A stretch of 48,911 nt of DNA from an uncultured Candidatus Saccharibacteria bacterium (GCA_964420115.1 CAYQQO010000001.1:5778-54688), one strand, 5' to 3'. Counted from the first letter of the stretch, positions 9,073 through 48,790 are shown. Notes: generated by a model not told the origin, from the letters alone. A program made the numbers and translations.

Positions 9073-10326
9073 TTATTTTAGCAATAAATAAATATGCTTT
9101 GTTTTATTTATCATTGTTTCCAAGCTGAATTCTTTTTCCAATTTTTGTTTGGCATTTTTGGTTAATTGCCGCCCTTTTTTTGGGTTATTTAATAAGTAAT
9201 TAATTTTTTCAGCCAATTGTTGGCTGTTTTTTGGTTCTGTCAAAAGACCGCTTTTATTATTTGTTATTATTTCCGGAATGCCGCCGACTTGGCTGGCTAC
9301 AACCGGCGCTCCACCGGCCATCGCCTCTAAGATGGTGTAGGGAAGCCCTTCTTTTAAAGAAGGGAGGACGAATATATCAAAAGCGGTAATATAGGAAGCG
9401 GCGTTATAAGTCCATTCAATTAAATGGATGTTTTTTAATTGTTTTTCTTTGATGTATTTTTTAATCTTCTCTTTATCGGGGTTTTCTCCGCTGCCTATTA
9501 AAACAAAATTAATTTCTTTTTTTGACTGTTTAATTTGAGTTGCCGCTTCTAAGAGATAAATTATCCCTTTGTTTTTTGTCCACTCAGCGATTGTCCCAAC
9601 CACTAGATAGCATCTTTTGCCAATAAGTTTTTTTTGCGCTTTATCGCGCGGCAGAAAGGAAGTTTTTTTAGAATCAATCCCGTTATAAATAGTGGTTAGC
9701 TTGTTAGCTGGCGCTGTTTTATGCCTAAGAGCCATTAAGCGATCATATTCTGAAACGCAAATAATCTTATCATAAAAAAGCGAAGTGATTTTGCTGAAAA
9801 ATCTGATTAAAAAAAGCTGATACTTGGTTCTTTCTTCATTAAAAGCCCAGCCGTGGACAGTGAAAACAAGTGAAAAAGGGCGTCGGCTTATAATTTTATA
9901 AAAAAAGCCGGCCAATCCGACTATGCCGCCAGCTTTAGAGCTGTTGACATGGACGATGCGCGGTTTTGTATTAAGAAGAAGGCGGAAAACATCCCAGCCA
10001 GCTAAAATATCTTTAAAAATATTAACTGATTTCTGGAATCCTTTTATTTCAAAATAAGGAATATTTGCCCCCTTTATTTTTTGAGCTAATTGCCTCTGCC
10101 CGCCGGCTGCCACCATAACTTCAAAGTTATTAGAAAAATTATTAGCTAAATCATAAACATATTTAGCCGCCCCGCCCCAGACAGATTTTGTGATAATATA
10201 AAGAATCCGCTTCTCTTTTTTTGTTTTTGGCGGGAAGTTTTTATCGTTGGAGAAACCGAGTTGGCCTGCCGAGCTTTTCTTTTTATTAGAGCCGTCATTA
10301 GGCAAGTGAGTTGATATTTTAGCCAT
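9073..10326 (-). CDS. GT4-family glycosyltransferase, 417 aa
   Basis: GT-B C-terminal signature EGLPYTILEAMAGGAPVVASQVGGIPEII (E-x7-E). Basic or disordered N-terminal extension. It is the only minus-strand gene in this part of the window. Confidence 0.85.
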   Translation of the reverse strand: MAKISTHLPNDGSNKKKSSAGQLGFSNDKNFPPKTKKEKRILYIITKSVWGGAAKYVYDLANNFSNNFEVMVAAGGQRQLAQKIKGANIPYFEIKGFQKSVNIFKDILAGWDVFRLLLNTKPRIVHVNSSKAGGIVGLAGFFYKIISRRPFSLVFTVHGWAFNEERTKYQLFLIRFFSKITSLFYDKIICVSEYDRLMALRHKTAPANKLTTIYNGIDSKKTSFLPRDKAQKKLIGKRCYLVVGTIAEWTKNKGIIYLLEAATQIKQSKKEINFVLIGSGENPDKEKIKKYIKEKQLKNIHLIEWTYNAASYITAFDIFVLPSLKEGLPYTILEAMAGGAPVVASQVGGIPEIITNNKSGLLTEPKNSQQLAEKINYLLNNPKKGRQLTKNAKQKLEKEFSLETMINKTKHIYLLLK

Positions 10327-10348
10327 TTTTTAGTATATTAAGCTATAT

Positions 10349-11515
10349 ATGGGCAATAATCAAGGGGCAAAGGTCTTGATTTTTTCAATGACATATCTGC
10401 CTTTTATTGGCGGAGCAGAGCTGGCGGTTAAGGAAATTACCGACCGCCTTAATAATTTTAGCTTTGATTTAATTACCGCCCGGCTGGACAGAAAACTGGC
10501 TAAGTTTGAGAGAATAGGCAATATCAATGTTTATCGGGTTGGCTATGGCTGGTTTTTAGACAAATATCTTTTTCCTTGCTTGGCATATTTTAAAGCCGTG
10601 AAATTGCATCAGCAAAATAATTATCAGGTTGTTCAGGCGATTATGGCTTTTTACGCTGGCTTAGCCGCCTTATTCTTTAAGTGGCGCTACAAAAAAGTTA
10701 AGTATCTTTTGACTATGCAAAGCGGTGATTCGGATTTATTTATCTGGCTGCGTACTTGGTTTTGGTATCCAATTTACAAAAAAATTTATACCAACGCCGA
10801 TTACATCCAAGCCATTAGCCGTTTTTTAGAAAAAAGAGCTATAAAATACGGGTACAAAGGAAAGGTTGAAATTGTTCCTAACGGGGTTGATATAGAGAGG
10901 TTTGCGAACAATAATGGCCGGGCCAAAGAGCTAAGGCGGAAACTCGGTATTAAAGAAAACGAAAAGGTTGTTATCACTGTTTCCCGCTTGGTTATGAAAA
11001 ACGGGATAGATGATTTGATTAAAGCAGGAAAATATTTAGATTTCACCTTTAAAATATTAATTATTGGTAAAGGGAAAGATGAAAAAAAATTAAAAAAAAT
11101 GACTCAAAGTTTGGGGCTTGAGAACAAAGTAATTTTTCTTGAGCAGATTATCCATAAAGATTTGCCCCAATATTTATTTTTATCCCATATTTTTGTTAGG
11201 CCTTCTTTGTCTGAGGGATTGGGTAGCGCTTTTTTAGAAGCGATGGCCGCTGGCTTGCCTGTTGTTGCCACGCCTGTGGGAGGAATTCCTGATTTTTTAA
11301 AAGATCCTTCTGAAAATTTAGAAGAGGCGACAGGTGTATTTTGTCGCATTTCAGATCCTAAAAGCGCGGCGGAAAAAATTAAACTATTGGTGGAAAACAA
11401 CCAATTAAGAGAAAAAATTATTAAAAACGGGAAGGAAATGGTTTCAAAAGATTATAACTGGCAAATGGTTTCTAAAAAAATGGAAAATATTTTTAATAAA
11501 TTATGCGCGTCTTAA
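10349..11515 (+). CDS. GT4-family glycosyltransferase, 388 aa
   Basis: SEGLGSAFLEAMAAGLPVVATPVGGIPDFL. N-terminal GGAE motif (FIGGAELAV). Confidence 0.85.
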   Translation: MGNNQGAKVLIFSMTYLPFIGGAELAVKEITDRLNNFSFDLITARLDRKLAKFERIGNINVYRVGYGWFLDKYLFPCLAYFKAVKLHQQNNYQVVQAIMAFYAGLAALFFKWRYKKVKYLLTMQSGDSDLFIWLRTWFWYPIYKKIYTNADYIQAISRFLEKRAIKYGYKGKVEIVPNGVDIERFANNNGRAKELRRKLGIKENEKVVITVSRLVMKNGIDDLIKAGKYLDFTFKILIIGKGKDEKKLKKMTQSLGLENKVIFLEQIIHKDLPQYLFLSHIFVRPSLSEGLGSAFLEAMAAGLPVVATPVGGIPDFLKDPSENLEEATGVFCRISDPKSAAEKIKLLVENNQLREKIIKNGKEMVSKDYNWQMVSKKMENIFNKLCAS

Positions 11516-12618
11516 TTACCACGGGCCTTTTTCCGCCGGAAATTGGCGGACCGGCAACATACAGCAAACTGCTTTTGGATGAATTGCCTAAACATGGTTT
11601 GGAGGTAGATGTTTTACCCTTTTCAAAAGTACGCGATTTACCCAATGGCATTAGGCATTTAGCTTATTTGGGAGAAATTTTAAATATTTCTTTAAAGCCG
11701 GATATTATTTTTGCCCAAGATCCTGTTAGCGTGGGTTTTTCTTCATTCTTAGCCGCTAAAATTATGCGCAAAAAGTTTATTTTAAAAATTGTCGGCGATT
11801 ATGCTTGGGAGCAGGGAAAGCAAAGGTGGCATATCAAAGACGGTTTAGACAAGTTTCAGCAAAAAGAATATGGTTGGCAGGTGGGATTGCTAAAAAAAAT
11901 AGAAAAAATAGTCGCCAAAAGCGCCGACCAAATTATTGTCCCGAGCAATTATTTAAAAAACATTATTTCTGGGTGGGGAGTTGATAAGGATAAAATAAAT
12001 GTCGTCTATAACGCTGTTTCAAAAATGACGGAGATAAAAGTAAGCCGAAAAGAAGCGCAGGATAAAATTGGCATTAAGGGAGATATTTTGCTCTCGGCTG
12101 GCCGCTTGGTGCCTTGGAAAGGGTTTGATGCCTTGGTCGGAATAATACCCTTTTTAATAAAAAAAAATAAAAATATTAAATTAATAATTATTGGCGGAGG
12201 AAATTACAAAGAAACTTTAGAGAGAAAAATTAACCAATTGGGACTAAAAGAAAGCGTCTTTTTAACGGGCCAAGTAGAAAGAAATAAACTTCCTCTTTAT
12301 TTTAAGGCCTCTAAAATATTTATTTTAAACACTCATTATGAGGGTTTGCCTCATTTGGTTTTAGAGGCGATGCAAATGAAAAGGCCTGTTATTACCACTA
12401 ATATTGGCGGCAATCCAGAGGTGATTAAAAATATGGTTAGCGGCATTTTAACAGAACCAGATAATAAAAAAGAAATAATAGAAGCAATAGAAAAAACATT
12501 AAAAGATGAAGAGTTTTATAATAGGTTGGTTAGAAACGCACATAATAATTTGAGTAAGTTTAGTTTTGAAAATATGATTAATAAAACTTTAAAAGTGTTG
12601 TATTTATTTACGCAGTGA
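11503..12618 (+). CDS. GT4-family glycosyltransferase, 371 aa
   Basis: YEGLPHLVLEAMQMKRPVITTNIGGNPEVI. N-terminal PPEIGGPATY. 13-nt overlap with the upstream gene. Confidence 0.85.
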   Translation: MRVLITTGLFPPEIGGPATYSKLLLDELPKHGLEVDVLPFSKVRDLPNGIRHLAYLGEILNISLKPDIIFAQDPVSVGFSSFLAAKIMRKKFILKIVGDYAWEQGKQRWHIKDGLDKFQQKEYGWQVGLLKKIEKIVAKSADQIIVPSNYLKNIISGWGVDKDKINVVYNAVSKMTEIKVSRKEAQDKIGIKGDILLSAGRLVPWKGFDALVGIIPFLIKKNKNIKLIIIGGGNYKETLERKINQLGLKESVFLTGQVERNKLPLYFKASKIFILNTHYEGLPHLVLEAMQMKRPVITTNIGGNPEVIKNMVSGILTEPDNKKEIIEAIEKTLKDEEFYNRLVRNAHNNLSKFSFENMINKTLKVLYLFTQ

Positions 12619-12681
12619 GCAGGTGGAAGACAAAAATTTGTTTTTGTTTTTCCGGGCGAACAAGTAAATACGCGAAGTTAT

Positions 12682-13842
12682 ATGCGCGTCTTAATGATTA
12701 GTTTGGATAAAACTCTTTTGGGTGGAGATTACAGCGGCGATGTGATAGAAAGACATAAAAGATACGGGGAAACGGCGGGCAGTTTGGAAATTATTGTTTT
12801 TTCAAAAGGTCAAGACAAAACAGCAAGCGTTCTCCCCCGCGGCTTGGATAAAAAAAGGATTAGTTCCCATTTAAGCGTTTATTCAACAAATTCTACAAAA
12901 AAGATAAATTATGTTTTTGACGCTTTTAATATTGCCAAAAGCATTTATTGGCCTGATAAGTTTGATTTAGTTGTTGCTCAAGATCCTTTTTTGACGGGTT
13001 TGGCTGGCTGGTTGATTAAAAAAAGATGCGAGGCGCCGCTGTTAGTCCATTTTCATGGCGATTTTTGGCAGAATAAGTGTTGGCTTTGGGAAAAATGGTT
13101 TAACCCTTTTCTTTTAGTTTTAAGCAAGCTATTGGTTGGGGGGGCTGACGGCGTCAGAGTGGTTAGTTCTATTATTAAAAGAAAACTTGTCAAATCAGGA
13201 ATAGATAAAAAGAAAATCAAAATTATTCCTACACCGGTTAATGTAGAAAAGTTTGTTTACTGCGACCCAGACCAATTAAGAGATTTGAGGAAAAATATTT
13301 TTGAGGGGAGAAAAACCGTTATTAATGTTGGCAGAGACGATTTGTCTAAGGATTACTCTACCTTGATTAAAACAATTGAATTGATTAATGATAAATACAG
13401 GAGTTTGGCTTTTTGCCAAATAGGGGCTGATCTTCAATTGGAAAAGAAAGTCAAAGCAGATGAAAACTTAATTTTAGCTTCTTATGGGAAAATGAGCCAA
13501 GAGGAATTGGCTAATTATTATCACGCCGCCCACGTCTATTTGTCAACTTCAAAACATGAAAGCTTTGGCAAGGTTTTGATTGAAGCGATGGCCTCTGGTC
13601 TGCCGGTTGTGGCTACGGCCACTACTGGTTCTAAGGGAATTATTAGAAACGGATATAATGGTTACCTGGTTCCTATTGGCGATAGTCAAGCGTTGGCCAG
13701 AAAAGTTTTATACCTGCTTAATAATCCCCAAAGAGCCAGAGAAATAGGGCAAAGGGGGAGAAAATTAGTAAGGGAAAAATTTGGCCAGGAAGAAAAGGTC
13801 AAAGATATTATTGGTTTTTGGGAATATTTATCACGCCAATAA
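12682..13842 (+). CDS. GT4-family glycosyltransferase, 386 aa
   Basis: HESFGKVLIEAMASGLPVVATATTGSKGII. It starts with the same ATGCGCGTCTTAAT as the gene at 11503, so the two are paralogues. Confidence 0.85.
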   Translation: MRVLMISLDKTLLGGDYSGDVIERHKRYGETAGSLEIIVFSKGQDKTASVLPRGLDKKRISSHLSVYSTNSTKKINYVFDAFNIAKSIYWPDKFDLVVAQDPFLTGLAGWLIKKRCEAPLLVHFHGDFWQNKCWLWEKWFNPFLLVLSKLLVGGADGVRVVSSIIKRKLVKSGIDKKKIKIIPTPVNVEKFVYCDPDQLRDLRKNIFEGRKTVINVGRDDLSKDYSTLIKTIELINDKYRSLAFCQIGADLQLEKKVKADENLILASYGKMSQEELANYYHAAHVYLSTSKHESFGKVLIEAMASGLPVVATATTGSKGIIRNGYNGYLVPIGDSQALARKVLYLLNNPQRAREIGQRGRKLVREKFGQEEKVKDIIGFWEYLSRQ

Positions 13843-13852
13843 AACAAAAATT

Positions 13853-15730
13853 ATGTGCGGCATTAATGGATTTAATTTTAACCAACCGGATTTGATTCGG
13901 CAGATGAATAAGAGGATTGGTCATCGCGGTCCTGACTTTGAAGATGTTTATTTAACTGATGATTTTTCTTTGGGGCATGTTCGTTTATCAATAATTGATT
14001 TGTCGGAAAAAGCTAAACAACCGATGTTTAATGAGGATAAATCGCTAGCTTTGGTTTTCAACGGAGAAATTTACAATTACAGAGAATTAAAAAATGATTT
14101 AGAAAAAAGAGGCCATCGTTTTTTGAGTCAGTCAGATTCAGAAATTATTTTACACCTTTATGAAGATTTAGGCGTTGATTGTCTAAAAAAGTTAAATGGG
14201 ATGTTTGCTTTTGCTGTTTTGAATATTAATAAAGGGGAAGTGTTTTTGGCTCGCGATAGAATAGGTATAAAGCCTCTTTATTATTATTTTAGCCGCTCGG
14301 CGGGAAAAAACGGGGGAGCTAAGTTTATTTTTTCCTCTGAAATAAAAGGAATTTTAGAGCACAATATTGAAAGAGAAATTAGTATGGAGGCCTTTAATCA
14401 TTACTTCCGCCTTCATTATATCCCGCATCCTTATACAATTTTTAAAAATATTTATAAAATCCCCCCAGCCAGTTATTTGCTTTTAAAAAACAACCAGCTA
14501 ATCATTAAGAAATACTGGCGAATAAATGATTACAGCGATTTAGAATCCGAAGACGAGATTATAGAAAAAATACAATACTTAATGGAAGATTCTGTTAGAA
14601 GGCAGCTTATTTCTGATCGGCCATTGGGCCTCTTTTTGTCAGGCGGGGTTGATTCTACCTCTATTTTAGGGACAATGCGCCAGTTGGGGCACCAAAAGAT
14701 AAAGACATTTTCTGTTGGTTTTGATTTTGATTCTGACTATTACAATATTGATTTTAATCTGGCTAAAAAAATAAGCCGGCATTACCAGACAGACCATCAC
14801 GAGTTTTTAGTCAGCGGTCGCGATATGCTGAAAAATATAGAAAAAGTTGTTTACCAGATGGACGAGCCAATAGCCAACGCTACTCAAATTGTTACCTATC
14901 TTTTGTCAAAATACACTCGCCAGGAAGTGGCTGTTGTTTTGGGCGGGGACGGCGGAGACGAGCTTTTCGGCGGCTATAAACGGTATGCTTACAGTCAGCT
15001 GGCCGGCAAATGGCAATTAATCCCCCTGTTTTTGAGAAAAAACATAATTGCTAAAATGCTTATTGATTCATCGGGAAAATATTTAGGGAAAGGAGATTTA
15101 TTGGATAAACTCAATGTGCCGCCCGGGGCAGAAAAGTACTTAATGTTTATGTCGCAGAAAGATAATGTTTTAAAAGAAGTTTTAAAAGAAAATTATTTTG
15201 AAAAAGATTTAACAAAAGAATTTTTCCAAGATAAATATTTTGATAAATTTTCAGGAGATGATTTTGAAAAATATTTTATGCTGGTTGATTTACAAAGCTG
15301 GTTGGTTGATGAATCATTGATGAGAACAGATAAAATGACCATGGCTTTTGGTTTGGAAGAAAGAGTGCCTATTTTGGATCATCGCTTGGTGGAGCTATCA
15401 GCAAAAATCCCAAGCTGTTTAAAGCTCAAAAGCGGCGGAAAGCATATTTTTAAAAAAGCAATGGGAGAACATTTGCCTGATTATGTTGTTAATGCCCCTA
15501 AAAGAGGATGGTTTTCGCCTGTTGCCAAGTGGCTTAGGACTGACTTGAAAGATTTTGCTTACCAAGTTTTGTCTGAAAGCTACTGTCCTAAAACAAATGA
15601 TTATTTTGATTTTAAGGGGATTAGAAATATATTGGATGATCATATAGAGAAGAAGCGCTATAATCTGACTGCTCTTTTAGTTTTAATTACTTGGCAGGTT
15701 TGGGCAAGGCAGTATTTGTCCCGCCAATAG
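13853..15730 (+). CDS. asnB: Asparagine synthase (glutamine-hydrolysing) family amidotransferase, 625 aa
   Basis: The start was moved to the in-frame ATG that gives the obligatory N-terminal Met-Cys (MCGINGF) of Ntn amidotransferases. PP-loop LFLSGGVDSTS. The track ORF begins 72 nt earlier, inside the previous gene. Confidence 0.85.
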   Translation: MCGINGFNFNQPDLIRQMNKRIGHRGPDFEDVYLTDDFSLGHVRLSIIDLSEKAKQPMFNEDKSLALVFNGEIYNYRELKNDLEKRGHRFLSQSDSEIILHLYEDLGVDCLKKLNGMFAFAVLNINKGEVFLARDRIGIKPLYYYFSRSAGKNGGAKFIFSSEIKGILEHNIEREISMEAFNHYFRLHYIPHPYTIFKNIYKIPPASYLLLKNNQLIIKKYWRINDYSDLESEDEIIEKIQYLMEDSVRRQLISDRPLGLFLSGGVDSTSILGTMRQLGHQKIKTFSVGFDFDSDYYNIDFNLAKKISRHYQTDHHEFLVSGRDMLKNIEKVVYQMDEPIANATQIVTYLLSKYTRQEVAVVLGGDGGDELFGGYKRYAYSQLAGKWQLIPLFLRKNIIAKMLIDSSGKYLGKGDLLDKLNVPPGAEKYLMFMSQKDNVLKEVLKENYFEKDLTKEFFQDKYFDKFSGDDFEKYFMLVDLQSWLVDESLMRTDKMTMAFGLEERVPILDHRLVELSAKIPSCLKLKSGGKHIFKKAMGEHLPDYVVNAPKRGWFSPVAKWLRTDLKDFAYQVLSESYCPKTNDYFDFKGIRNILDDHIEKKRYNLTALLVLITWQVWARQYLSRQ

Positions 15731-15754
15731 GAAAAAATTGGTAAAACGAAAAAT

Positions 15755-16798
15755 ATGAAATTATTAATGATTACCAGAAAAATAGATAAAGACGATCCCC
15801 AGGCCGGCTTTGCTTATAACTGGGTTAGAAAGCTGGGCCAGCGGTTGGACCAATTGAAGGTAATTTGTTTGGAAAAAGGAAATGCTTCTGGCTTGTCTAA
15901 TAATATAGAAATTTTTTCTTTAGGCAAAGAAAGGGGCAAAAATCGCTTAGCCGAGTTTATAAACCTCCAAAAAGGGGCAATAAAATTTATCAGGCATGTT
16001 GACGGAGTTTTTTGCCACCAGAACGCTGAATATATAATTTTAATTTCTCCTTATGCTAAAATATTTAGGAAAAAGATAGTTAGTTTTTACGGCCATAAAG
16101 CAGTTAATTGGAAAACAAAATTAATAGCTCTTTTGGCAGATGTAGTTGTCACTTCCAGTAGAGCAGGCTTTAATATAGACACCCCGAAGAAAAAGGTTAT
16201 TGGCCAGGGGGTAGACACAGAGTTATTCAGGCCTGATTTTACTAAAAAAGAAAAAGGCGTTTTAAAAATTATTTCAGTTGGCAGATATTCGCCGATAAAA
16301 GATTACATAACTCTGGTAAGGGCAGTCAGTTTAATAAAAAGACAGAGAGACGATGTTTCTCTCTGTGTCTTTGGCAATATTACTGCCGATGAACAGGAAA
16401 AATATTATAATAAGATTAAAGGGCTGGTAAGGGAATTGGGCCTTGAAAATAATGTTCTTTTAAGCCGCGGCATTTCGCAGAAAGAACTGGCTGGAATATA
16501 CAGGAGTTTTGACTTGGCTGTTAATTTATGTCCGACTGGCGCTCCGGATAAAGCCGGCTTTGAAGCGATGGCCTCGGGCCTGCCTCTTTTTACTTCTAAT
16601 AAAAGCTTTGAGAAAGATTTCGGCCCCTATGTCAATCAGCTTGTTTTTAAAGAAAAAGATGAAAGAGATTTAGCTGATAAAATTATTAATTTATCTGAAA
16701 AGCGCAAAATGGAAGAAATGGGATTATTTTTAAGAAAACAAGTTATTAAAAAACATAATTTGGATAATTTATTGGATAAAATATTACAATGCTTTTGA
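15755..16798 (+). CDS. GT-B (GT4-like) glycosyltransferase, 347 aa
   Basis: C-terminal PDKAGFEAMASGLPLFTSN. The length and layout fit a GT-B fold. Confidence 0.65.
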   Translation: MKLLMITRKIDKDDPQAGFAYNWVRKLGQRLDQLKVICLEKGNASGLSNNIEIFSLGKERGKNRLAEFINLQKGAIKFIRHVDGVFCHQNAEYIILISPYAKIFRKKIVSFYGHKAVNWKTKLIALLADVVVTSSRAGFNIDTPKKKVIGQGVDTELFRPDFTKKEKGVLKIISVGRYSPIKDYITLVRAVSLIKRQRDDVSLCVFGNITADEQEKYYNKIKGLVRELGLENNVLLSRGISQKELAGIYRSFDLAVNLCPTGAPDKAGFEAMASGLPLFTSNKSFEKDFGPYVNQLVFKEKDERDLADKIINLSEKRKMEEMGLFLRKQVIKKHNLDNLLDKILQCF

Positions 16799-17517: not shown

Positions 17518-17540
17518 TTTTTTGGCGAGCGCAAGAAATC

Positions 17541-17594
17541 TCTCGGGCTGGGTATTTTTCTCGGACTAAGGGGCCTTCTCGGGCTAAAGAACGA
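17541..17594. repeat. Three tandem 18-bp units built around TCTCGGRCT
   Basis: TCTCGGGCT at 17541, TCTCGGACT at 17559 and TCTCGGGCT at 17577. The segment is GC-richer than its flanks and lies in the 83-bp gap before the methyltransferase gene. Confidence 0.7.
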
Positions 17595-17600
17595 AGGTTA

Positions 17601-36460: not shown

Positions 36461-36462
36461 TT

Positions 36463-38507: not shown

Positions 38508-38546
38508 TTTTGCTTTAGTTCTTTTGCAAAGGCAAGATTAAATTTT

Positions 38547-43353: not shown

Positions 43354-43363
43354 TGGGGTTCGT

Positions 43364-43383
43364 GCCAGCCTCTAGCGGCTGGC
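43364..43383 (+). other. GC-rich hairpin without a T-tract
   Basis: GCCAGCC-TCTAGC-GGCTGGC, starting 11 nt after the radical SAM stop codon. Confidence 0.3.
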
Positions 43384-43407
43384 CTTGGGATGCATTAAGA
43401 CTTGACT

Positions 43408-45099
43408 ATGAAAATTTTTTTTAGAAAAAACTGGGTTTTAATATCAATTCTATTATTTGCTTTCTTGATTAGGGTTGTTGGTATTTTTTATGGTTTTCCC
43501 TTGGGTGGTGTTTTTAGTGACGAAGTACCGACTGTTTTAGCTGTTTTAAAAATGATTGGCCAACAGTCCTGGCGGCCTGATTTTGCCGGTTATTATTACC
43601 CGGCTCTTTTAAGCTATATTTATCTCCCCTTTTTTGTTCTTTTTTTAGCAATTGGCTTGTTCATGGGGTTATTCCCCAGCATTGAGTCGTTGAAAGAATT
43701 AGTGATTTTAACCCCTGGTTATTTTCTGCCCTTGGCCAGGTTTATAAATATTATTTTAGCAGTAGGGACTATTTTTCTTGTTTATAAAATTGCTTTTAAG
43801 CTATTTAATAATAAAACCACTGGGTTGATTGCTGGTTGGTTGCTGTCGGTTAGTTTTTTTTATTCACATCAGTCTCATTTTGCCACCACTTGGATTGGGC
43901 AGACATTTTTTGTTGTTTTAGCAGCTTATTGGGCGGTTTTGATGTGGAATAAAAGGGAATTAGCAATTAAAGATTATTTAATTGGCGGATTGTTGGTCGG
44001 AGTCGCTTTTGGTATTAATTTTGTCGGCGTTCTAAGTTATTTGTTTTTTTTGGTAGTTCATTTCTATAAGAATAAAGAAAAAACTTTTTTTAAAAAATTT
44101 ATTATCAATAACAAATTCTGGGTATTAAATTCAACAATTCTTCTTTTAGTTATTGTTGTTTATATTTTAAATCCGCACGGATTAAATAATTATATAAATC
44201 GCTTGACAATCGTAGAGGGGCCCTCTAGTCATTATCAAATATTCGGGCGTGATATACATCATGGCAATGCCAGTTTTTTTGATCGTTTTAATTACTACCT
44301 TTCTTCTTTGTGGTACTTGGATACAGTTTATGCCATTTTGTTTCTTCCTGCTTTAACTTTGTTATTTATTAAAAAAAGACATATCTTTGTTTTTCTTTTT
44401 TTCTTTATTTTTTTATACTTATTTTTTCTTTCCCCTTTGACGGGATTAATGCAGAGATATCTTTTGCCGGCGCTCCCTTTTGTAATTGTTGTTTTAGCTT
44501 ATTTTGCCTATTGGCTGGTAAGCGGCTTTAAGAGAAATTATATAAAAATATTTTTGATTATTTTAATTACTGCTCCTTCTCTTTACTTTTCTCTTCTTTT
44601 CGACACAAAAATAATTCAAGGAGACACAAGAACAGAAGCTCGTTTATGGATTTATAATAATATAGACAGCGGTAGCGCTATTAACAATATAAGCTGGCCG
44701 AAGTTGTACCTTAACGAAAGCAAAGAGATAGTCTCCTTGTTTGAAGAAAAAAAGCCAGCTCTTTTTTCAACAAAAAGAAATTATTTGAAAAATCTTTCAA
44801 AAGAGAATTACCCAGAGCCAAATTATTTTATTGTCACCAATAAAGATATATTAGAAGACCTAAATGTTGAATTTAATTATTTTATACTTGCTGATTACAA
44901 TTATCTGCAATTAGAAGAAAGAAGAAAAATACTTCCAAAAGGAGCTGGGATTATTAAACGCTTTTATCCTGTAAGCGGAGATGATAAGAAAAACATTAAC
45001 GGAGAATTAGATGGAATTTTTTTAGATTATCCATGCCAGTTAAAGAAAATTGAAAAAGGCGGGCCATATATTGAGATATATAAAGTGGATAAGATATGA
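43408..45099 (+). CDS. GT-C-fold membrane glycosyltransferase (ArnT/PMT, GT39/GT83-like), 563 aa
   Basis: First-loop acidic motif GGVFSDEVPTVLAV. More than 10 TM helices plus a C-terminal soluble domain. The track start at 43402 is TTG; the ATG at 43408 is preferred. Confidence 0.6.
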   Translation: MKIFFRKNWVLISILLFAFLIRVVGIFYGFPLGGVFSDEVPTVLAVLKMIGQQSWRPDFAGYYYPALLSYIYLPFFVLFLAIGLFMGLFPSIESLKELVILTPGYFLPLARFINIILAVGTIFLVYKIAFKLFNNKTTGLIAGWLLSVSFFYSHQSHFATTWIGQTFFVVLAAYWAVLMWNKRELAIKDYLIGGLLVGVAFGINFVGVLSYLFFLVVHFYKNKEKTFFKKFIINNKFWVLNSTILLLVIVVYILNPHGLNNYINRLTIVEGPSSHYQIFGRDIHHGNASFFDRFNYYLSSLWYLDTVYAILFLPALTLLFIKKRHIFVFLFFFIFLYLFFLSPLTGLMQRYLLPALPFVIVVLAYFAYWLVSGFKRNYIKIFLIILITAPSLYFSLLFDTKIIQGDTRTEARLWIYNNIDSGSAINNISWPKLYLNESKEIVSLFEEKKPALFSTKRNYLKNLSKENYPEPNYFIVTNKDILEDLNVEFNYFILADYNYLQLEERRKILPKGAGIIKRFYPVSGDDKKNINGELDGIFLDYPCQLKKIEKGGPYIEIYKVDKI

Positions 45100-46058
45100 A
45101 GCGCTATACAGTTTTTTTAGCTAAAGCATTAATAACTCTTGCTGTTTTATACTTAATTTTTTTGAAGGTTGACTTGAAAAGCGCTGTTATGCATATTAAA
45201 ACAGCCAGTTTTGCTTTAATTTTTTTGGCTGTTTTGGCTAATTGCGCTTCGGTTATTGTTAATTCAAAAAAATGGCAGGTTTTAATGCGCTCGGTTAGTG
45301 TTGATATTGATTTAAAACCCTTAATTTATTTGACCTTTTCAAGTTTGTTTTATTCTTCTTTTTTGCCCGGCGGGATGCTTACCGGCGAAACTATCAAATG
45401 TTACAAGGCGGCCCGCGGCAGAGCGAATAAAGGGAGGATTATAATATCTGTCTTTATAGACAGATTGACTAATTTTGCCGCTTATATTTTAATGGGTTTG
45501 TTATTTTTACTGATTGTTTATAAGAAGGAAATGTTAGAGTACCAAGTTTTGTTAAGTTTTACTCTTTTAGCTTCTTTAGTGACTATTTTGGCTGTTTTAA
45601 TTATTTTTAGTTCCAGATTGATAAGTTTTTTCTTTAAAATAATTGATAAAATTTTATCAAAAATAAGGCAAATTCGGCTGACGCGTTTAAGCAAGTTATT
45701 AAAAGAAAATATTTTGTTTTTTAGCAAAGAAAAGAAAACGTTTTTTGTGATTTTTGTTTATAGTATAGCCGGTTATTTTCTTAATGTTTTAATTGTTTGG
45801 CTGGTTGGCATTGGTCTGGGTTTGGATATTAACGCAGCTCATTATTTTTGGATGACTTCTTGGGTGACTATTCTTATTTTATTGCCAATAACTGTTTTGG
45901 GTCTTGGAATACGCGAAGGATCATTTATATATTTTTTAGGTTTGCTTGGGGTAAATTCTGAATTAGCCTTGAGTTTGTCGATTTTAGTTTTTGTGGCTAA
46001 TATTTCCGCAGCTCTCGTTGGAGGCGCTTGGGAAATGATTATTTTTTTTAAAAGGTAG
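45096..46058 (+). CDS. UPF0104 / LPG-synthase-TM 'flippase-like' membrane protein, 320 aa
   Basis: About 8 TM helices. N-terminal KALITLAVLYLIFLKVDL...NSKKWQVLM is the pattern typical of this family. ATGA junction with the GT-C gene. Confidence 0.6.
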   Translation: MKRYTVFLAKALITLAVLYLIFLKVDLKSAVMHIKTASFALIFLAVLANCASVIVNSKKWQVLMRSVSVDIDLKPLIYLTFSSLFYSSFLPGGMLTGETIKCYKAARGRANKGRIIISVFIDRLTNFAAYILMGLLFLLIVYKKEMLEYQVLLSFTLLASLVTILAVLIIFSSRLISFFFKIIDKILSKIRQIRLTRLSKLLKENILFFSKEKKTFFVIFVYSIAGYFLNVLIVWLVGIGLGLDINAAHYFWMTSWVTILILLPITVLGLGIREGSFIYFLGLLGVNSELALSLSILVFVANISAALVGGAWEMIIFFKR

Positions 46059-46119
46059 GGCTAATAACTTGTTTTATTTTAATAACAAGGCAAAGGCTCT
46101 GTGAATTTTTTATAGGATT

Positions 46120-47343
46120 ATGAAGATTTTATTCTTGATAGATTATTTTCCTCCCGAGCATTTAGGCGGCGCTGAAATGGTTGCTTTTCGTTTGGCAAAA
46201 GAAATGAAAAGATTAGGCCATCGGCTCTGTGTTATAACGACAACAAGAGAAAGGAAAAAAGCGGGAGTAGAAAATTTAGAAGGGATAAAGGTTTATCGGA
46301 TTTACGCGGATTATCACCCCAGATGGCGTTCTTATCTTTCTTTGCATAATTTTCGTATAATTAGTCAAATTGAAAAAATTATAAAAGAATTTCAGCCAGA
46401 TATTTCGCATTTCCATAATATTCATTGGTATATATCATATTATTCTATTAAATTGGCTAAAAAATATTCTAAAAAAGTTTTTTTAACAGCTCATGACGCA
46501 ATGATTGTCCATTATGGCAAGTGGCTGCCGAAAGAAAAAAATGATTATAAAATAACGCTTTTTGACCAAATAAAAACAGCTAAAAAAAGATATAATCCTT
46601 TTAGGAATTTATTTATTGGTTATTGCTTGAAATCTACTGATAAAATTTTTGCTGTTAGCAATTCATTAAAGCGCCTTTTGGTTTTAAACGGCGTTAAAAA
46701 CACAGCTGTCATATACAATGGGATAAATATAAGAAAATGGCAGAAAAAAGAGAAGGCAGTTGGGCAATTTATAAAAAAGCATCGGTTAGAAGACAAGAAA
46801 GTTATCCTTTTTGCCGGCCGTTTGAATAAGGCGCGGGGAGGCGAAGTGATTTTAAAAAGTTTAAGAGAAATCCTTAAAAAAGAACCAAATACTATTCTTT
46901 TGGTTATTGGCAAAAAAGACGCCTATGCTTCTCTTATGGTGGATTTGTGCAAAAAATATAAGTTGGGAGATAATGTTGTTTTTACCGGCTGGATAACAGG
47001 CCAAGAGTTGAAAGCGGCCTATTGGAGCAGTGATTTGGTTGTTTTTCCTTCTCTTTGTTTTGAGAGTTTTGGTTTAGTTTGCTTGGAAGCAATGGCGGCG
47101 AAAAAGCCGGTTGTGGCCAGCTATTTTGGCGGACCGAGCGAAATAGTTTTAGACAAGCAGAGTGGTTATCTGGTCAATCCTTATAATATAAGCCAATTGT
47201 CAGAAAAAAGCTTAGAATTATTAACCAACAAACAGAGAAAGGAAGAGTTCGGCCAAGTTGGCTTTAAAAGAGCTAAGCAATTGTTCACTTTAGAAAAACA
47301 AGTTGATGCTTATTTAAAGTGGTATAAAGGCAATTATGAATAG
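46120..47343 (+). CDS. GT4-family glycosyltransferase, 407 aa
   Basis: PPEHLGGAEMVA and FESFGLVCLEAMAAKKPVVASYFGGPSEIV. Confidence 0.85.
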   Translation: MKILFLIDYFPPEHLGGAEMVAFRLAKEMKRLGHRLCVITTTRERKKAGVENLEGIKVYRIYADYHPRWRSYLSLHNFRIISQIEKIIKEFQPDISHFHNIHWYISYYSIKLAKKYSKKVFLTAHDAMIVHYGKWLPKEKNDYKITLFDQIKTAKKRYNPFRNLFIGYCLKSTDKIFAVSNSLKRLLVLNGVKNTAVIYNGINIRKWQKKEKAVGQFIKKHRLEDKKVILFAGRLNKARGGEVILKSLREILKKEPNTILLVIGKKDAYASLMVDLCKKYKLGDNVVFTGWITGQELKAAYWSSDLVVFPSLCFESFGLVCLEAMAAKKPVVASYFGGPSEIVLDKQSGYLVNPYNISQLSEKSLELLTNKQRKEEFGQVGFKRAKQLFTLEKQVDAYLKWYKGNYE

Positions 47344-48790
47344 TATTGTTTTGTTTTTTCCTAAATTTACTCCCCAAGACATAGAGTCTCGGCTTACGCC
47401 GGCGAGCTTGCTAATGGTGGCTGCGCCTTTAATCAAAGCGGGGTATCAGGTTAAAATTATAGATCAAAGAATTGATAAAAATTGGCAAAATAGTCTGTTA
47501 GGAGAACTAAAAAAAGAACCTTTATTGGTTGGCTTCTCGGCTATAACTGGAGAACAGCTACTTTATGCTGTAGAAGTTAGCAAATTAGTCAAAGAAAAGA
47601 GTTCCTCTTATGTTGTTTGGGGAGGCATTCATGCTTCCTTGCTGTCTGAGCAAACCTTAGCTAATCCTTATATAGATTTTATTGTTGTTGGCGAAGGTGA
47701 AAAAACTTTTTTAGAGCTAGTCCAGTCTCTTAGCGGAAAACAATCTTATCATTTAATTAAGGGGTTGGGATTTAAAAAGGGGGACGAGTTATATATTAAT
47801 CAGCAGGATGAATTTTTAGATTTGGATAATCTTTTGCCAATGCCTTATCACTTAATTGATTTTGACAAGTATGTTACTCCTAAATCATTTGCCAGCGGCA
47901 AACCGGGCAGAGGCATTGATTTCTATACCAGCCGGGGTTGTCCTCATCGTTGCGGTTTTTGCTATAATCAAGTTTTTAATAAAAGAAAATGGCGGGGCCG
48001 TTCAGCTGAAAAAGTTGTTGAAGACATTGAAGGATTAGTTAGGGATTATCACATTACGTCTTTGGACATTGAAGACGATGAATTTTTTGTTGACAGAAAA
48101 AGGGCGGGCCGGATTGCAGAGCTGATAATTGAAAGAGGAATCAATATTGATATATTTACAGCTTGCCGTGTTAATTACGTGGTTCATATGGATATTGATT
48201 ATTTGAAATTATTAAAAAGAGCCGGTTTTGCAACTCTGGCTTTTGGAGTAGAATCAGGCTCGCCTCGCATTTTAGAACTGATGAAAAAAGATATAGCTAT
48301 TGAACAAGTTTTTGAAACAATCAAAAAATTAAAAGAAGCCGGCATTAATTCAAAATACTATTTTATGGCCGGTTTTCCCACAGAAACTATTAAAGATTTG
48401 TATTTAACCACTGATTTAATCCAAAAAATGAAGCAATTAGATCCGGGGATTAGAATACCTGCTTGGCGTGTTTATACGCCTTATCCCGGAACTAATCTGT
48501 ACCAATTAAGTATTGATAACGGTTTTGTCCCTCCCAAGGATCTTGAAGAATGGGTTAATTATGATTTTAATACAATAAAAATGCCCTGGGTTAAGGGCAG
48601 AAGAAAGAAGATTATAGAGAGTGTTTCTTTTCTTAATGCCTATTTGGGGTTGAAGTGGATAAAAAGCAAAGGGATTATCCCAACATTAAAAAGATTTTTT
48701 GGCTATATGGTAAATTGGCAATGGCAATCTCATTTGTTTTTTACATGGCCAGAAGAAATAATTGTCAATTTAGTCAAAAAAATGAGATAA
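47336..48790 (+). CDS. Cobalamin-binding (class B) radical SAM enzyme, 484 aa
   Basis: LVGFSAITGEQ...VVWGGIHAS and SRGCPHRCGFC. Confidence 0.8.
   Translation: MNSIVLFFPKFTPQDIESRLTPASLLMVAAPLIKAGYQVKIIDQRIDKNWQNSLLGELKKEPLLVGFSAITGEQLLYAVEVSKLVKEKSSSYVVWGGIHASLLSEQTLANPYIDFIVVGEGEKTFLELVQSLSGKQSYHLIKGLGFKKGDELYINQQDEFLDLDNLLPMPYHLIDFDKYVTPKSFASGKPGRGIDFYTSRGCPHRCGFCYNQVFNKRKWRGRSAEKVVEDIEGLVRDYHITSLDIEDDEFFVDRKRAGRIAELIIERGINIDIFTACRVNYVVHMDIDYLKLLKRAGFATLAFGVESGSPRILELMKKDIAIEQVFETIKKLKEAGINSKYYFMAGFPTETIKDLYLTTDLIQKMKQLDPGIRIPAWRVYTPYPGTNLYQLSIDNGFVPPKDLEEWVNYDFNTIKMPWVKGRRKKIIESVSFLNAYLGLKWIKSKGIIPTLKRFFGYMVNWQWQSHLFFTWPEEIIVNLVKKMR

Follow-up and report, generated by a model that had tools for sequence, protein, structure and literature searches.

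Gram-positive clusters for S-layer protein O-glycosylation (slg), described in Geobacillus stearothermophilus NRS 2004/3a and Paenibacillus alvei, can adjoin S-layer genes, and one of them includes an asparagine synthase homologue (PMC2943079). The S-layer O-OTases WsaB and WsfB carry a Wzy_C domain, a C-terminal TPR region is found in WsfB and in PglL, and WsaA is a TPR protein encoded just upstream of WsaB (PMC2943079). The locus studied here lies in a 48,911-nt stretch of DNA (GCA_964420115.1 CAYQQO010000001.1:5778-54688; hereafter the window) and shares with these slg loci a surface-protein gene beside a glycan cluster, a small TPR protein encoded directly upstream of a Wzy_C transferase (g5) that resembles WsfB and PglL in bearing a TPR region at its own C-terminus, consecutive glycosyltransferase (GT) genes with overlapping ORFs, an asparagine-synthase homologue, nucleotide-sugar genes and the encoding of some functions elsewhere in the genome. 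However, the window lacks both a priming transferase of the WsaP type and a Wzm/Wzt ABC exporter, its host is a CPR bacterium, neither SLH nor any other known S-layer domain occurs in its surface protein (g3), and it is far richer in tailoring (PAPS sulfation, six radical SAM enzymes and three amidotransferases), with additional GT2/GT-C routes.

Another part of the window resembles the Arn pathway (PmrHFIJKLM), which places L-Ara4N onto lipid A. Common to both are an ArnB/DegT-type aminotransferase (g27), an N-formyltransferase (g22) closest to the ArnA FT domain, an ArnC-like polyprenyl-phosphate GT2 (g31), a CE4 deacylase of the ArnD-type family (g12) and a GT-C (g29) predicted to act outside the membrane; ArnT is among the fold matches of g29, whose fold score is nearer to STT3, PglB and DPY19. 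In contrast to Arn, the sugar precursor would be made by a dTDP-glucose-4,6-dehydratase-like enzyme and not by UDP-GlcA decarboxylation, the flippase-like LPG_synthase_TM protein g37 stands in the window instead of ArnE/F, and all matches fall well under the equivalog cut-offs. As Patescibacteria are considered monoderm and devoid of lipid A, the acceptor must differ from that of Arn.

Three-component systems of extracytoplasmic glycosylation (GtrA/B/V, CsbB-GtcA-YfhO and C. youngae GT136; PMC11127046) likewise encode together a GT-A/GT2 enzyme that makes polyprenyl-phosphate sugars, a flippase and a GT-C, and streptococcal GtrB/PgfS plus GT-C O-glycosylation of Ser/Thr-rich regions (PMC12041528) is paralleled by two enzymes that match the PgfS model (g28 and g31) and by a Ser/Thr-rich extracytoplasmic protein encoded close by. 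Yet the window contains no GtrA- or MATE-family flippase, its GT-Cs are not YfhO, GT136 or PMT (the family of g29 has no name, and g36 resembles PMT at a sub-threshold score), and its version sits inside a much larger Leloir-GT cluster. The original prediction of an undescribed system is therefore too strong, because the architecture parallels S-layer loci (PMC2943079) and the lipid-phosphate/GT-C part parallels Arn, three-component (PMC11127046) and Pgf/GtrB (PMC12041528) systems. The combination on which it was based is nevertheless present: judged by family assignments, the locus has several radical SAM enzymes of the cobalamin type alongside sulfation from PAPS and a polyprenyl-phosphate/GT-C route that resembles Arn, a union for which literature keyword searches found no description.

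Gene content and integrity of the locus

Family assignments were made with Pfam and NCBIfam profiles over the 39 ORFs of the window (Table 1). ORF listing and profile scans reproduced the inventory originally given for positions 9073-48790, and so directly established a cluster of 34 closely packed genes with eight GT4, two GT2, three AsnB, three class-I methyltransferase, four B12-binding and two SPASM radical SAM proteins, together with the sulfation, CE4, formyltransferase, WbqC, RfbB, DegT and flippase-like genes. Genes meet at -1, -4 or -8 nt in many places, giving way to a coding fraction of approximately 0.96 overall, and only g6 and g17 within the cluster lie on the minus strand. With corrected starts, each AsnB homologue opens with MCGI, which provides the Ntn catalytic Cys. 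The host is, judging from sequence matches, an ultra-small Patescibacteria (CPR) bacterium whose nearest relatives are Portnoybacteria-like Parcubacteria, since the best GTDB matches of g39 (57-61%) are Patescibacteria, as are all the named members among at least 344 clusters homologous to g3.

Table 1 Features of the window, with positions counted from its first nucleotide.
Feature	Position	Strand	Basis or detail
g1, ECF-type sigma-70 factor	176-742	+	Pfam
g2, DUF5667 single-pass membrane protein	907-1770	+	Pfam; one TM segment
g3, 1225-aa secreted protein	2215-5892	+	N-terminal signal peptide, composition
g4, TPR membrane protein	6074-6769	+	4-nt ATGA-type overlap with g5
g5, Wzy_C + C-terminal TPR	6766-9066	+	Pfam Wzy_C 77.4 bits; 13 predicted TM segments
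g6-g14, backbone block	9073-19402	mixed	Pfam/NCBIfam
g6, GT4	9073-10326	-	Pfam
g7, g8, g9, g11, g14, GT4	within 9073-19402		
g10, AsnB	start 13853		
g12, CE4 deacetylase; g13, methyltransferase	within 9073-19402		
g15-g21, sulfation/tailoring block	19399-27621	mixed	Pfam/NCBIfam
g15, sat	within 19399-27621		436 bits; curated cut-off 387
g16, cysC	within 19399-27621		225.7 bits; cut-off 138.7
g17, Sulfotransfer_1	within 19399-27621	-	5'-PSB-like motif GVQRAGTTW
g18, g19, B12-binding + Radical_SAM	within 19399-27621		
g20, Sulfotransfer_1	within 19399-27621		
g21, AsnB	start 25792		
g22-g28, amino-dideoxyhexose block	27634-34410	+	Pfam/NCBIfam
g22, ArnA-like N-formyltransferase, additional C-terminal domain	within 27634-34410		
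g23, g24, Radical_SAM + SPASM	within 27634-34410	+	
g25, WbqC; g26, RfbB-like 4,6-dehydratase	within 27634-34410	+	
g27, DegT aminotransferase	start 32592	+	
g28, short soluble GT2	33706-34410	+	
g29, GT-C-fold glycosyltransferase, 669 aa	34451-36460	+	12 predicted TM segments; AlphaFold/Foldseek
g30-g39, second lipid-phosphate/GT-C and tailoring block	36463-48790	+	Pfam/NCBIfam
g30, GT4; g32, AsnB; g33, g34, methyltransferases; g35, B12-binding + Radical_SAM	within 36463-48790	+	
g31, ArnC/PgfS-like GT2	37566-38507	+	two C-terminal TM helices
g36, probable GT-C	start 43408	+	9 hydropathy-predicted TM segments
g37, LPG_synthase_TM, flippase-like	within 36463-48790	+	
g38, GT4; g39, B12-binding + Radical_SAM (pair)	within 36463-48790	+	

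The integrity of the locus, for which breaks at 21.9-22.1 or 28.7-30.8 kb had originally been named as possible signs of a chimera, was also established directly. In run SRR7048227, four Logan contigs match the sequence at 100% identity, over 94-10742, 20556-25932 (L002), 25904-38195 (L016) and 45766-48780 (L015); L002 and L016, which overlap by 29 nt, cross the first and the second suspected break, respectively. These independent contigs all come from one sequencing run and hence test the assembler, not the sample. Repeat-driven misjoins are not expected, as all paralogue pairs are only 22-40% identical, and the modules of the locus recur together in other Patescibacteria. A rise in GC at 28-31 kb (0.41-0.46) and a 55-bp direct repeat at the extreme end of the window could speak for an assembly of unrelated loci; however, the genes on either side of the GC rise are also neighbours in the Parcubacteria genome L011, and composition is uniform, with a tetranucleotide correlation of at least 0.92 across the whole cluster. 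A chimera is accordingly scarcely credible, and the claim of a coherent glycoconjugate locus of single origin holds.

Upstream cassette, candidate acceptor and missing genes

The cluster boundary drawn at 9073 was too narrow: the conserved portion of the locus is g1-g5, upstream of that position, including the overlooked g5, from which 6 nt separate the cluster. The cassette is headed by a putative sigma/anti-sigma pair, g1 and g2. The g3 homologues of L017, L019/L020 and L023 are preceded by a pair of this type, interrupted in L023 by a 648-aa Sulfatase-family gene; L024 lacks the pair. The g3-TPR-Wzy_C triad was observed in all five contexts examined, from Portnoybacteria-like genomes through Falkowbacteria and Doudnabacteria, with glycan genes downstream that vary or are missing between contexts. 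Homologues of g6, g7 and g8 remain beside the Wzy_C gene in L017, and those of g6 and g7 in L019; in L023 a PMT-family GT-C separates the TPR gene from the g3 homologue, and the triad is retained though no large glycan cluster follows.

Ser and Thr make up 21.5% of g3, in which Ala, Gly and Asp are also abundant; no Pfam family and no known S-layer or anchoring domain was detected in it, and its residues 36-170 are also present in a second secreted protein of relatives. Only its composition, signal peptide, many homologues and synteny make g3 a candidate for the major, S-layer-like surface glycoprotein that would accept the glycan. Its presumed partner g5 is a candidate O-oligosaccharyltransferase/ligase, with a sole PDB sequence match to the WaaL-type 'polysaccharide polymerase/ligase' 7tpg (E=1.5e-5). 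Because the Wzy_C family also holds WaaL ligases and some polymerases, g5 could instead act in ligation to a lipid or wall polymer, or in polymerization.

An initiating phosphoglycosyltransferase, a Wzx or ABC exporter and RmlA had been reported missing, and correctly so for the window: Bac_transf, Glycos_transf_4, Polysacc_synt, ABC and NTP_transferase profiles matched none of its 39 ORFs. In L003, L004 and L005 a minus-strand gene of 416-417 aa directly follows the g39 homologue; profile scanning assigns the one in L003 to the Wzx flippases (Polysacc_synt). A Bac_transf initiating transferase is further present in L005, and a PMT_2 gene is likewise supplied in related loci. Since related loci carry these genes and the window stops 121 bases past the g39 stop, inside a 121-kb contig, the absences are probably edge effects, with the genes just beyond the window or elsewhere in the genome. 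The non-canonical assembly logic read from them is thus unsupported or overstated, given also that a Wzy_C+TPR gene abuts the cluster.

Tailoring and lipid-monophosphate modules

Only position ties the sulfation module to the same product as its neighbours: it was not found in any related CPR locus examined, and a metagenome scan for the sulfotransferase returned just two distant relatives (31%). None of the six radical SAM proteins reached a curated equivalog cut-off. The nearest solved structures to g39 are the dehydratase AprD4, ahead of the methylase TokK, and also OxsB; those to g24 are BlsE, BtrN and DesII. With class B (cobalamin-dependent) enzymes, which act on sugars or other unactivated carbons (TokK and GenK-type methylases; AprD4), g39 has in common a B12-binding domain at the N-terminus, ahead of a radical SAM core with CxxxCxxC, at a distant similarity (E=1e-14 to 1e-5). 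C-methylation is the most likely activity of the B12-radical SAM enzymes, as a family-level guess. Here the context is a surface-glycan locus in which g39 has a translationally coupled GT4 partner, g38, a pair kept in seven GTDB loci; no characterised example of such a pairing in a surface-glycan locus was found.

In the amino-dideoxyhexose block, the formyltransferase-GNAT fusion proposed for g22 stood in its N-terminal half, which resembles the ArnA formyltransferase domain (E=1.7e-28), whereas the GNAT half is weak (Acetyltransf_1 E=0.009; no PDB sequence match). GC3 in g23 and g24 deviates (0.54 and 0.43 versus approximately 0.33), which suggests that they were inserted later. The order SPASM-SPASM-FT-WbqC-RfbB also occurs in L011, and in L004 WbqC-RfbB-DegT is followed directly by a homologue of g29. 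In the window, g29 has no Pfam or NCBIfam match and belongs to a family of 475 representative clusters with an invariant H155 and nearly invariant D122 and E314. Its AF2 model (pLDDT 93.8, pTM 0.95) gave GT-Cs as the best 13 Foldseek matches in the PDB (STT3, DPY19, PglB, AftA and ArnT), each at probability 1.00 and 11 of the 13 at E<=0.001, confirming by predicted structure a GT-C-fold enzyme of an uncharacterised family. The second GT-C-like transferase originally proposed, g36, is probably a GT-C, with a PMT match below threshold (19.4 versus 22.7 bits) and an N-terminal loop containing 'SDE'. Profile scores of g31 were 207 bits for ArnC and 161 bits for PgfS.

Proposed pathway and alternative readings

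With moderate confidence, we favour the reading of the window as a surface-glycoprotein O-glycosylation island in which en-bloc assembly would go together with Arn-like additions through lipid monophosphates and GT-Cs and with unusually extensive tailoring. Family assignments and gene order lead us to infer that the eight cytoplasmic GT4 enzymes would assemble an oligosaccharide or polymer on a polyprenyl-diphosphate carrier, primed by a transferase encoded outside the window. Tailoring of the glycan or its nucleotide-sugar precursors would take place in the cytoplasm before flipping: the two sulfotransferases would use PAPS from the dedicated sat/cysC pair, the three glutamine-dependent AsnB-type amidotransferases would convert carboxylates into amides or amidines, g12 would N-deacetylate or deformylate, the three SAM methyltransferases would attach O- or N-methyl groups, and the four cobalamin-type radical SAM enzymes, one of them translationally coupled to a GT4, would most likely methylate unactivated carbons. 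The finished glycan would be flipped, probably by a Wzx encoded just past the window, and moved to Ser/Thr of g3 by g5, aided by g4. In a parallel Arn-like branch, g26 and g27 would yield an NDP-4-amino-4,6-dideoxyhexose, which may be N-acylated or further modified by g22 together with g25 (WbqC) and the SPASM proteins g23 and g24; the GT2s g28 and g31 would charge polyprenyl monophosphate with sugars, g37 would translocate them, and on its outer side g29 and g36 would attach them either to the glycan or to the protein itself.

An unlikely but serious contender is a free-standing envelope polysaccharide (capsule/EPS, secondary cell-wall polymer or lipoglycan) as the product, a reading in which g5 is a Wzy-type polymerase or WaaL-like ligase, as its domain and lone PDB match would allow, and g3 an unrelated neighbour or a lectin/anchor, not the acceptor. 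The number of GT4s, eight, points to a repeat unit that is long or complex, the top-scoring model for the AsnB homologues is that of the XrtA/PEP-CTERM EPS amidotransferase, though its cut-off is not reached, the best sub-threshold matches of g6 and g7 are EPS and teichuronic acid transferases, and known sulfated bacterial glycans are mostly polysaccharides or lipids. However, retention of the triad across distant CPR classes, even where the large cluster is missing, fits an enzyme-substrate pair better than chance adjacency, g3 is secreted and Ser/Thr-rich, and a TPR protein followed by a Wzy_C-TPR protein is the layout reported for protein O-OTases (PMC2943079).

A distinctly more doubtful reading holds that at least two independent pathways share only their location (an en-bloc O-glycan from g5-g14, a second glycan tailored by sulfation and radical SAM enzymes, and an Arn-like monosaccharide on another acceptor), so that the union of chemistries in one product would be illusory. 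It draws on the two GT2/GT-C pairs, the divergent gene pair with a 190-nt gap at 21917-22108, the deviant GC3 of g23 and g24, the lack of sulfation genes in related loci and the recurrence elsewhere of single sub-modules (g38-g39, SPASM-SPASM-FT-WbqC-RfbB and WbqC-RfbB-DegT-GT-C), a synteny that was observed directly; near-continuous packing on one strand, stop/start overlaps across module borders and uniform composition argue against it, and O-antigen and slg loci with a single product, too, typically evolve as modular mosaics (PMC2943079). This reading is compatible with O-glycosylation of a surface glycoprotein and partly nested in it. A secondary-metabolite cluster, aminoglycoside- or glycolipid-like, is very improbable: the solved relatives of g39 and g24 come from antibiotic pathways, and DegT, 4,6-dehydratase, formyltransferase and AsnB-like enzymes are also found in such clusters, but eight GT4s, a Wzy_C enzyme, polyprenyl-phosphate GT2s, GT-Cs and a flippase-like protein are present, profile scans of the window detected no cyclitol synthase, PKS/NRPS, resistance or export gene, and the locus is tied to a surface-protein cassette that is conserved among CPR bacteria, whose genomes are reduced.

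The 40-kb block, which may specify more than one product, is an elaborate form of a known locus type, not a new type of system, and its product is most likely a heavily decorated (sulfated, methylated and amidated) glycan for the large surface protein encoded just upstream.

Gene content and continuity of the cluster

We took 39 window ORFs, each 100 aa or longer, as genes (g1–g39, in order), with starts shortened for five over-long calls, and scanned all of them with Pfam and NCBIfam models. This listing reproduced the inventory of the original prediction almost exactly, with 34 genes (g6–g39) inside the cluster. The predicted formyltransferase–GNAT fusion (g22) was borne out in its formyltransferase half, but the GNAT half is unproven (E = 0.009, no PDB match). 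After start correction all three AsnB-type proteins begin with MCGI and so keep the catalytic N-terminal Cys. Gene junctions are often −1, −4 or −8 nt, and approximately 96% of the window is coding. A comparison of all paralogues gave identities of only 22–40% throughout: the copies are old and distinct in function, and did not arise by recent duplication. The window has neither a tRNA nor a match to any Rfam family, cobalamin and SAM riboswitches included, and promoter and terminator pattern counts there were no higher than shuffled expectation. The GT4 genes g6 (minus strand) and g7 (plus strand) diverge across a gap of 22 nt, or 24 nt in the closest relative (L017); this conserved layout can scarcely accommodate two promoters. 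A defence-system reading was set aside, having only weak 'GT4-conflict' co-hits beneath stronger GT4 models.

Gene families of the cluster and coordinates of the features discussed
Feature	Genes or residues	Sequence	Position
Cluster	g6–g39	window	9073–48790
GT4 (8)	g6, g7, g8, g9, g11, g14, g30, g38	window	
GT2 (2)	g28, g31	window	
Sulfotransfer_1 (2)	g17, g20	window	
B12-binding/radical SAM (4)	g18, g19, g35, g39	window	
Radical SAM/SPASM (2)	g23, g24	window	
AsnB-type amidotransferase (3)	g10, g21, g32	window	
Class-I methyltransferase (3)	g13, g33, g34	window	
CE4 deacetylase (1)	g12	window	
Formyltransferase (1)	g22	window	
WbqC (1)	g25	window	
RfbB-like dehydratase (1)	g26	window	
DegT (1)	g27	window	
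LPG_synthase_TM 'flippase-like' protein (1)	g37	window	
Secreted protein	g3	window	2215–5892
Conserved segment of secreted protein	g3 residues 36–170	window	2320–2724
Same segment in second secreted protein		L017	15803–16201
Same segment in second secreted protein		L019	16528–16929
Wzy_C/TPR protein	g5	window	6766–9066
Divergent GT4 gap	g6/g7	window	10326–10349
Divergent GT4 gap	g6/g7 homologues	L017	20701–20726
GC rise	g23, g24	window	28722–30753
B12-radical SAM with variant motif	g35	window	41938–43353
GT4/B12-radical SAM pair	g38, g39	window	46120–48790
Phosphodiest gene		L003	4846–6069
Independent contig, first		window	94–10742
Independent contig, second		window	20556–25932
Independent contig, third		window	25904–38195
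Independent contig, fourth		window	45766–48780
55-bp direct repeat, copies	end of g39 and beyond	window	48751–48805; 48857–48911
Promoter-pattern matches, minus strand		window	20–49; 82–111
Candidate 5′ direct repeat		window	20–111

Breaks at 21.9–22.1 or 28.7–30.8 kb had been named as the sign of a chimaera, in which the window would join unrelated loci. Exact-protein look-ups in Logan's independent assembly of run SRR7048227 retrieved four contigs that match the window at 100% identity; all come from one sequencing run and thus test the assembler, not the sample. The second spans the gap at the first site and the third the GC rise at the second, and the two share a 29-nt overlap, as expected of graph-based contig ends. 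Throughout the cluster, tetranucleotide usage correlates with that of the remaining window at 0.92 or better; the upstream gene g3 is the sole outlier, an effect of its amino-acid make-up. The GC rise is limited to the two SPASM genes, g23 and g24 (GC3 0.54 and 0.43, versus approximately 0.33 elsewhere in the cluster), and a Parcubacteria genome (L011) has the same neighbours in the order SPASM–SPASM–formyltransferase–WbqC–RfbB. Their compositional signature suggests that they were acquired separately and later than the rest; we read the rise as an older acquisition and not a misjoin, and hold a chimaera to be extremely improbable. Records place the proteins of the window on a contig of 121,361 bp, so the window is a slice of that contig, and the best GTDB matches to g39 (57–61% identity) are Patescibacteria MAGs and SAGs, including a complete 626-kb Saccharibacteria chromosome.

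Both ends of the window carry repeats. A perfect 55-bp direct repeat (period 106) at the very end contains the final codons and stop of g39, and a short ORF after g39 shares its tail, ...KKMR followed by the stop; a Logan contig ends inside it. The repeat reflects a small tandem duplication or else arises from the assembly graph. At the extreme 5′ end, a promoter pattern (GAGACA ... CATAAT) matched twice indicates a short direct repeat, and a Logan contig end (position 94) lies nearby.

Conserved genes upstream of the cluster

The boundaries originally drawn enclose the genes of the cluster but overlook a conserved head directly upstream, which encodes, in order, an ECF sigma factor (g1), a DUF5667 single-pass membrane protein (g2), a secreted protein (g3), a TPR membrane protein (g4) and a Wzy_C protein (g5), whose start overlaps g4 by 4 nt. 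The secreted protein, the candidate glycan acceptor, has 1,225 aa, a signal peptide and a Ser+Thr content of 21.5%, and is rich in Ala, Gly and Asp; no known S-layer domain or Pfam domain was detected in it. Its family comprises at least 344 homologous clusters, the closest (56–61%) named Portnoybacteria and further ones Falkowbacteria, Doudnabacteria, Buchananbacteria and Parcubacteria. The g5 protein combines Wzy_C (77.4 bits, cut-off 31.7), C-terminal TPRs and 13 predicted TM segments; a WaaL-type ligase is all that it matches by sequence in the PDB. With g4 it provides a candidate for the Wzy_C oligosaccharyltransferase with TPR motif and partner that marks a locus of the slg (S-layer glycosylation) or PglL type. 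In the described systems Wzy_C is present in WsaB and WsfB, WsfB and PglL have C-terminal TPRs, the small TPR protein WsaA is encoded directly upstream of WsaB, and slg clusters can adjoin S-layer genes, one of them with an asparagine synthase homologue (PMC2943079). The g4–g5 arrangement is like theirs, and the window has three AsnB genes.

The succession of g3 homologue, TPR protein and Wzy_C protein (approximately 755–775 aa) recurred in five of five contexts examined, with one or two extra genes interposed in L017, L019/L020 and L023. What follows the Wzy_C gene varies: homologues of g6, g7 and g8 and then a HAD hydrolase in the close relative L017; a B12-radical SAM and a GT4 gene in L019, a 745-kb contig with a JGI twin (L020); ribosomal and division genes in the Falkowbacteria-like contig L023, where a PMT-family GT-C adjoins the g3 homologue; and scattered GT4, dehydrogenase and epimerase genes in a Doudnabacteria genome (L024). 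A constant head with a variable tail is as expected if genes for an acceptor and its transferase precede a glycan island that diversifies.

Residues 36–170 of g3 recur at 65–67% identity in a second, shorter secreted protein of L017 and L019 (447 and 511 aa, with SH3_3 in the 511-aa copy) and are better conserved than g3 overall (49–60%). Judged by this recurrence, the segment may serve both proteins as a common module for cell-wall anchoring or sorting.

Assembly, carrier and transfer genes

Neither an initiating phosphoglycosyltransferase (PGT) of the WsaP/WbaP/WecA type, nor an exporter (Wzx or Wzm/Wzt ABC), nor RmlA occurs among the 39 window ORFs, so the absences originally reported hold for the window, and the PGT and exporter of an slg/PglL-type locus would lie outside it. 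The non-canonical assembly logic, one of two readings offered for them, does not follow. In three related loci (L003, L004 and L005) a minus-strand gene of 416–417 aa directly follows the g39 homologue, and the copy scanned (L003) is a Polysacc_synt Wzx flippase; the next gene (528–586 aa) is weakly PMT_2-like in L005 and has no Pfam match in L003, and a Bac_transf priming transferase lies within 10 kb in L005. The window ends 121 bases past the g39 stop, inside the 121-kb contig. Because relatives carry Wzx and Bac_transf and the window stops at g39, the absences are most economically read as an edge effect combined with the use of housekeeping genes, a feature that slg loci share; they do not argue for a carrier logic that dispenses with a diphosphate-linked intermediate.

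The proposed Arn-like polyprenyl-phosphate route stands as an analogy but not as Arn membership. Likeness lies in the formyltransferase domain of g22, the DegT aminotransferase g27, the ArnC/PgfS-like g31, the CE4 deacetylase g12 and the GT-C g29. The N-terminal half of g22 finds its best match in the formyltransferase domain of ArnA (E = 1.7e-28 against ArnA structures), but g22 scores 126 bits against the cut-off of 777 of the ArnA model NF005998, and g26, an SDR, is dTDP-glucose-4,6-dehydratase-like (327 bits versus 365) and not a decarboxylase, so that the ArnA combination of formyltransferase and UDP-GlcA oxidative decarboxylase is lacking. Scores of 282.7 bits for g27 against ArnB (cut-off 631) and 207 for g31 against ArnC (cut-off 529) likewise fall far short, the fold match of g29 to ArnT (E = 1.5e-3) ranks behind STT3, DPY19, PglB and AftA, and no small EamA-type flippase ORF (ArnE/F) occurs in the window, which thus holds no ArnB, ArnC or ArnT equivalog. 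In L004, WbqC–RfbB–DegT is directly followed by a g29 homologue. Since every cut-off is widely missed, the sugar would pass through a 4,6-dehydratase, ArnE/F is absent and CPR bacteria (Patescibacteria) to our knowledge have no lipid A, the branch is Arn-like and not Arn: by analogy, it would work like Arn without being a member.

Closer functional parallels than Arn are three-component extracytoplasmic glycosylation (PMC11127046) and the streptococcal GtrB/PgfS plus GT-C system, which O-glycosylates Ser/Thr-rich extracytoplasmic protein regions (PMC12041528). The predicted polyprenyl-phosphate sugar synthase of such a system is g31 (GT2 domain, DAD motif, two C-terminal TM helices, top models ArnC and PgfS), and its GT-C transferase is g29, as identified by AlphaFold2 and Foldseek. 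A GtrA- or MATE-family flippase is missing among the window ORFs; g37 matches LPG_synthase_TM/TIGR00374 'flippase-like' at 72.6 bits (cut-off 43.2).

Two GT-C-like transferases had been proposed, of which the fold of g29 is corroborated and g36 is only probable. The g29 protein is 669 aa long with 12 predicted TM segments, and searches of Pfam, NCBIfam and PDB sequences gave no match for it. Its family numbers 475 representative clusters by exhaustive HMMER search, which was needed because word-index searches gave just three proteins; weak DUF2298 matches occur in 5 of 71 members and PMT_2 in one of 71. A 99-sequence alignment yielded an AlphaFold model with pLDDT 93.8 and pTM 0.95 (a 3-sequence alignment gave pLDDT 41, unusable). 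The best 13 Foldseek matches in the PDB are all GT-Cs (STT3, DPY19, PglB, AftA and ArnT), each with a probability of 1.00 and 11 with E ≤ 0.001; H155 is invariant in the family, and D122 and E314 nearly so. On the modelled fold, g29 is a GT-C of an unnamed family, and that its top fold matches are protein-modifying GT-Cs is suggestive but weak (TM-scores 0.31–0.47). With a sub-threshold PMT score (19.4 bits), nine predicted TM segments and 'SDE' in its first loop, g36 is probably a GT-C; an hhalign profile comparison revealed no relationship to the g29 family, and PDB sequence searches with g36, WbqC and the C-terminal half of g22 gave nothing meaningful. Directly upstream of the g29-type GT-C in L003 lies a Phosphodiest gene (type I phosphodiesterase/alkaline-phosphatase superfamily) with weaker Sulfatase similarity, a hint of possible phospho- or sulfo-ester chemistry in sister loci.

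Tailoring enzymes and the surface of CPR bacteria

The components of PAPS-dependent sulfation are all predicted from sequence in the cluster: ATP sulfurylase (sat, g15, 436 bits versus 387), APS kinase (cysC, g16, 225.7 versus 138.7) and two Sulfotransfer_1 proteins (g17, 76 bits; g20, 70 bits; cut-off 22), of which g17 has a GxxRxGTT 5′-PSB-like loop and g20 a variant of it. None of the related CPR loci examined showed the module, and a shallow metagenome scan seeded with g20 alone found just two loci, distant (31%) and without the other modules; within the reach of this search, sulfation appears to be the rarest ingredient.

All four B12-type proteins have B12-binding and radical SAM Pfam domains above cut-off, the domain content of class B; CxxxCxxC is present in g18, g19 and g39, and in g35 Cx4Cx2C (C213, C218, C221) replaces the canonical Cx3Cx2C. 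The remaining two, g23 and g24, have SPASM Pfam matches (37.6 and 45.4 bits versus 21.5), as expected of radical SAM/SPASM proteins, and five C-terminal Cys each, compatible with one or two auxiliary clusters (twitch or full SPASM). Curated equivalog cut-offs were reached by none of the six; the best sub-threshold models for the B12 type are HpnJ, BchE and ApyD. Among solved structures AprD4 comes nearest to g39, followed by TokK and OxsB, and the weak relatives BlsE, BtrN and DesII come nearest to g24. These enzymes act on sugars or on nucleoside/aminoglycoside scaffolds, BlsE, BtrN and DesII all on sugars; PPR-protein matches to g24 had no passing stretch and were set aside.

The GT4 gene g38 and the B12-radical SAM gene g39 overlap by 8 nt and are translationally coupled. 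The pair recurs in seven GTDB loci (L003–L009), five from Patescibacteria and two on contigs binned as Gammaproteobacteria, at identities of 42–50% for g38 and 50–61% for g39. A g29-type GT-C lies upstream of the pair in L003, L004 and L008, and a small methyltransferase directly upstream of the GT4 gene in L003, L005, L007 and L008; more distant relatives (34–38%) occur in Pirellulales, Desulfobacteraceae and Nanoarchaeia MAGs. Our literature search found no paper on GT4 and B12-radical SAM pairing in glycan loci and no relevant description for WbqC, DUF5667, CPR sulfotransferases or B12-radical SAM with polysaccharide, and a CPR review makes no mention of glycans or S-layers.

With moderate confidence we read the locus as a Patescibacteria surface-glycoprotein glycosylation island, in which canonical en-bloc assembly and Wzy_C-mediated transfer would be joined by lipid-monophosphate/GT-C additions and unusually rich tailoring. 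The main competitor, in which g3 would not be the acceptor and the product would be a free polysaccharide or wall polymer, is to be set against the constant head and seems unlikely to us, if worth keeping in view. That several independent pathways merely stand side by side, in so tightly spaced a gene array, strikes us as decidedly unlikely. A secondary metabolite cluster is in our estimate very improbable. The observation behind the original prediction is confirmed, and its interpretation is partly supported. The locus brings to light no new assembly principle, the one that it follows being familiar. It draws attention to a candidate for a major surface protein of CPR bacteria, to an unnamed GT-C family and to a GT4/B12-radical SAM module that is uncharacterised.

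Tentatively, and with more doubt than belief, we put forward a joint proposal: that g3–g4–g5 are the long-sought surface-lattice glycoprotein of Parcubacteria-type CPR and its O-oligosaccharyltransferase, the hypervariable island after the cassette being a 'serotype' determinant in attachment to hosts or evasion of phages; and that the coupled GT4/B12-radical SAM pairs, across CPR and a few other phyla, define an uncharacterised class of cobalamin-dependent enzymes modifying lipid-linked surface glycans at unactivated carbons. If the latter were true, CPR organisms would make sulfated, C-methyl-branched, amidated sugars.

Patescibacteria are thought to live attached to host cells (PMC11665869). 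A typical CPR genome is approximately 1 Mb, and the related complete Saccharibacteria chromosome has 626 kb; here, on our reading, approximately 40 kb is spent on one surface glycoconjugate, beside a conserved, abundant-looking secreted protein. We know of hardly any described molecule of the CPR surface, and of no characterisation of the chemistry on glycans of the recurrent GT4/B12-radical SAM module, to which this locus brings notice. If the model holds, the g3 family, the g5 transferase and the g29 GT-C family would be concrete CPR envelope targets, with diagnostic mass shifts of +80 Da (sulfate), +14 Da (methyl) and −1 Da (amide). We know of no cobalamin synthesis by CPR organisms themselves, and on this model their surface decoration would depend on scavenged cobalamin.
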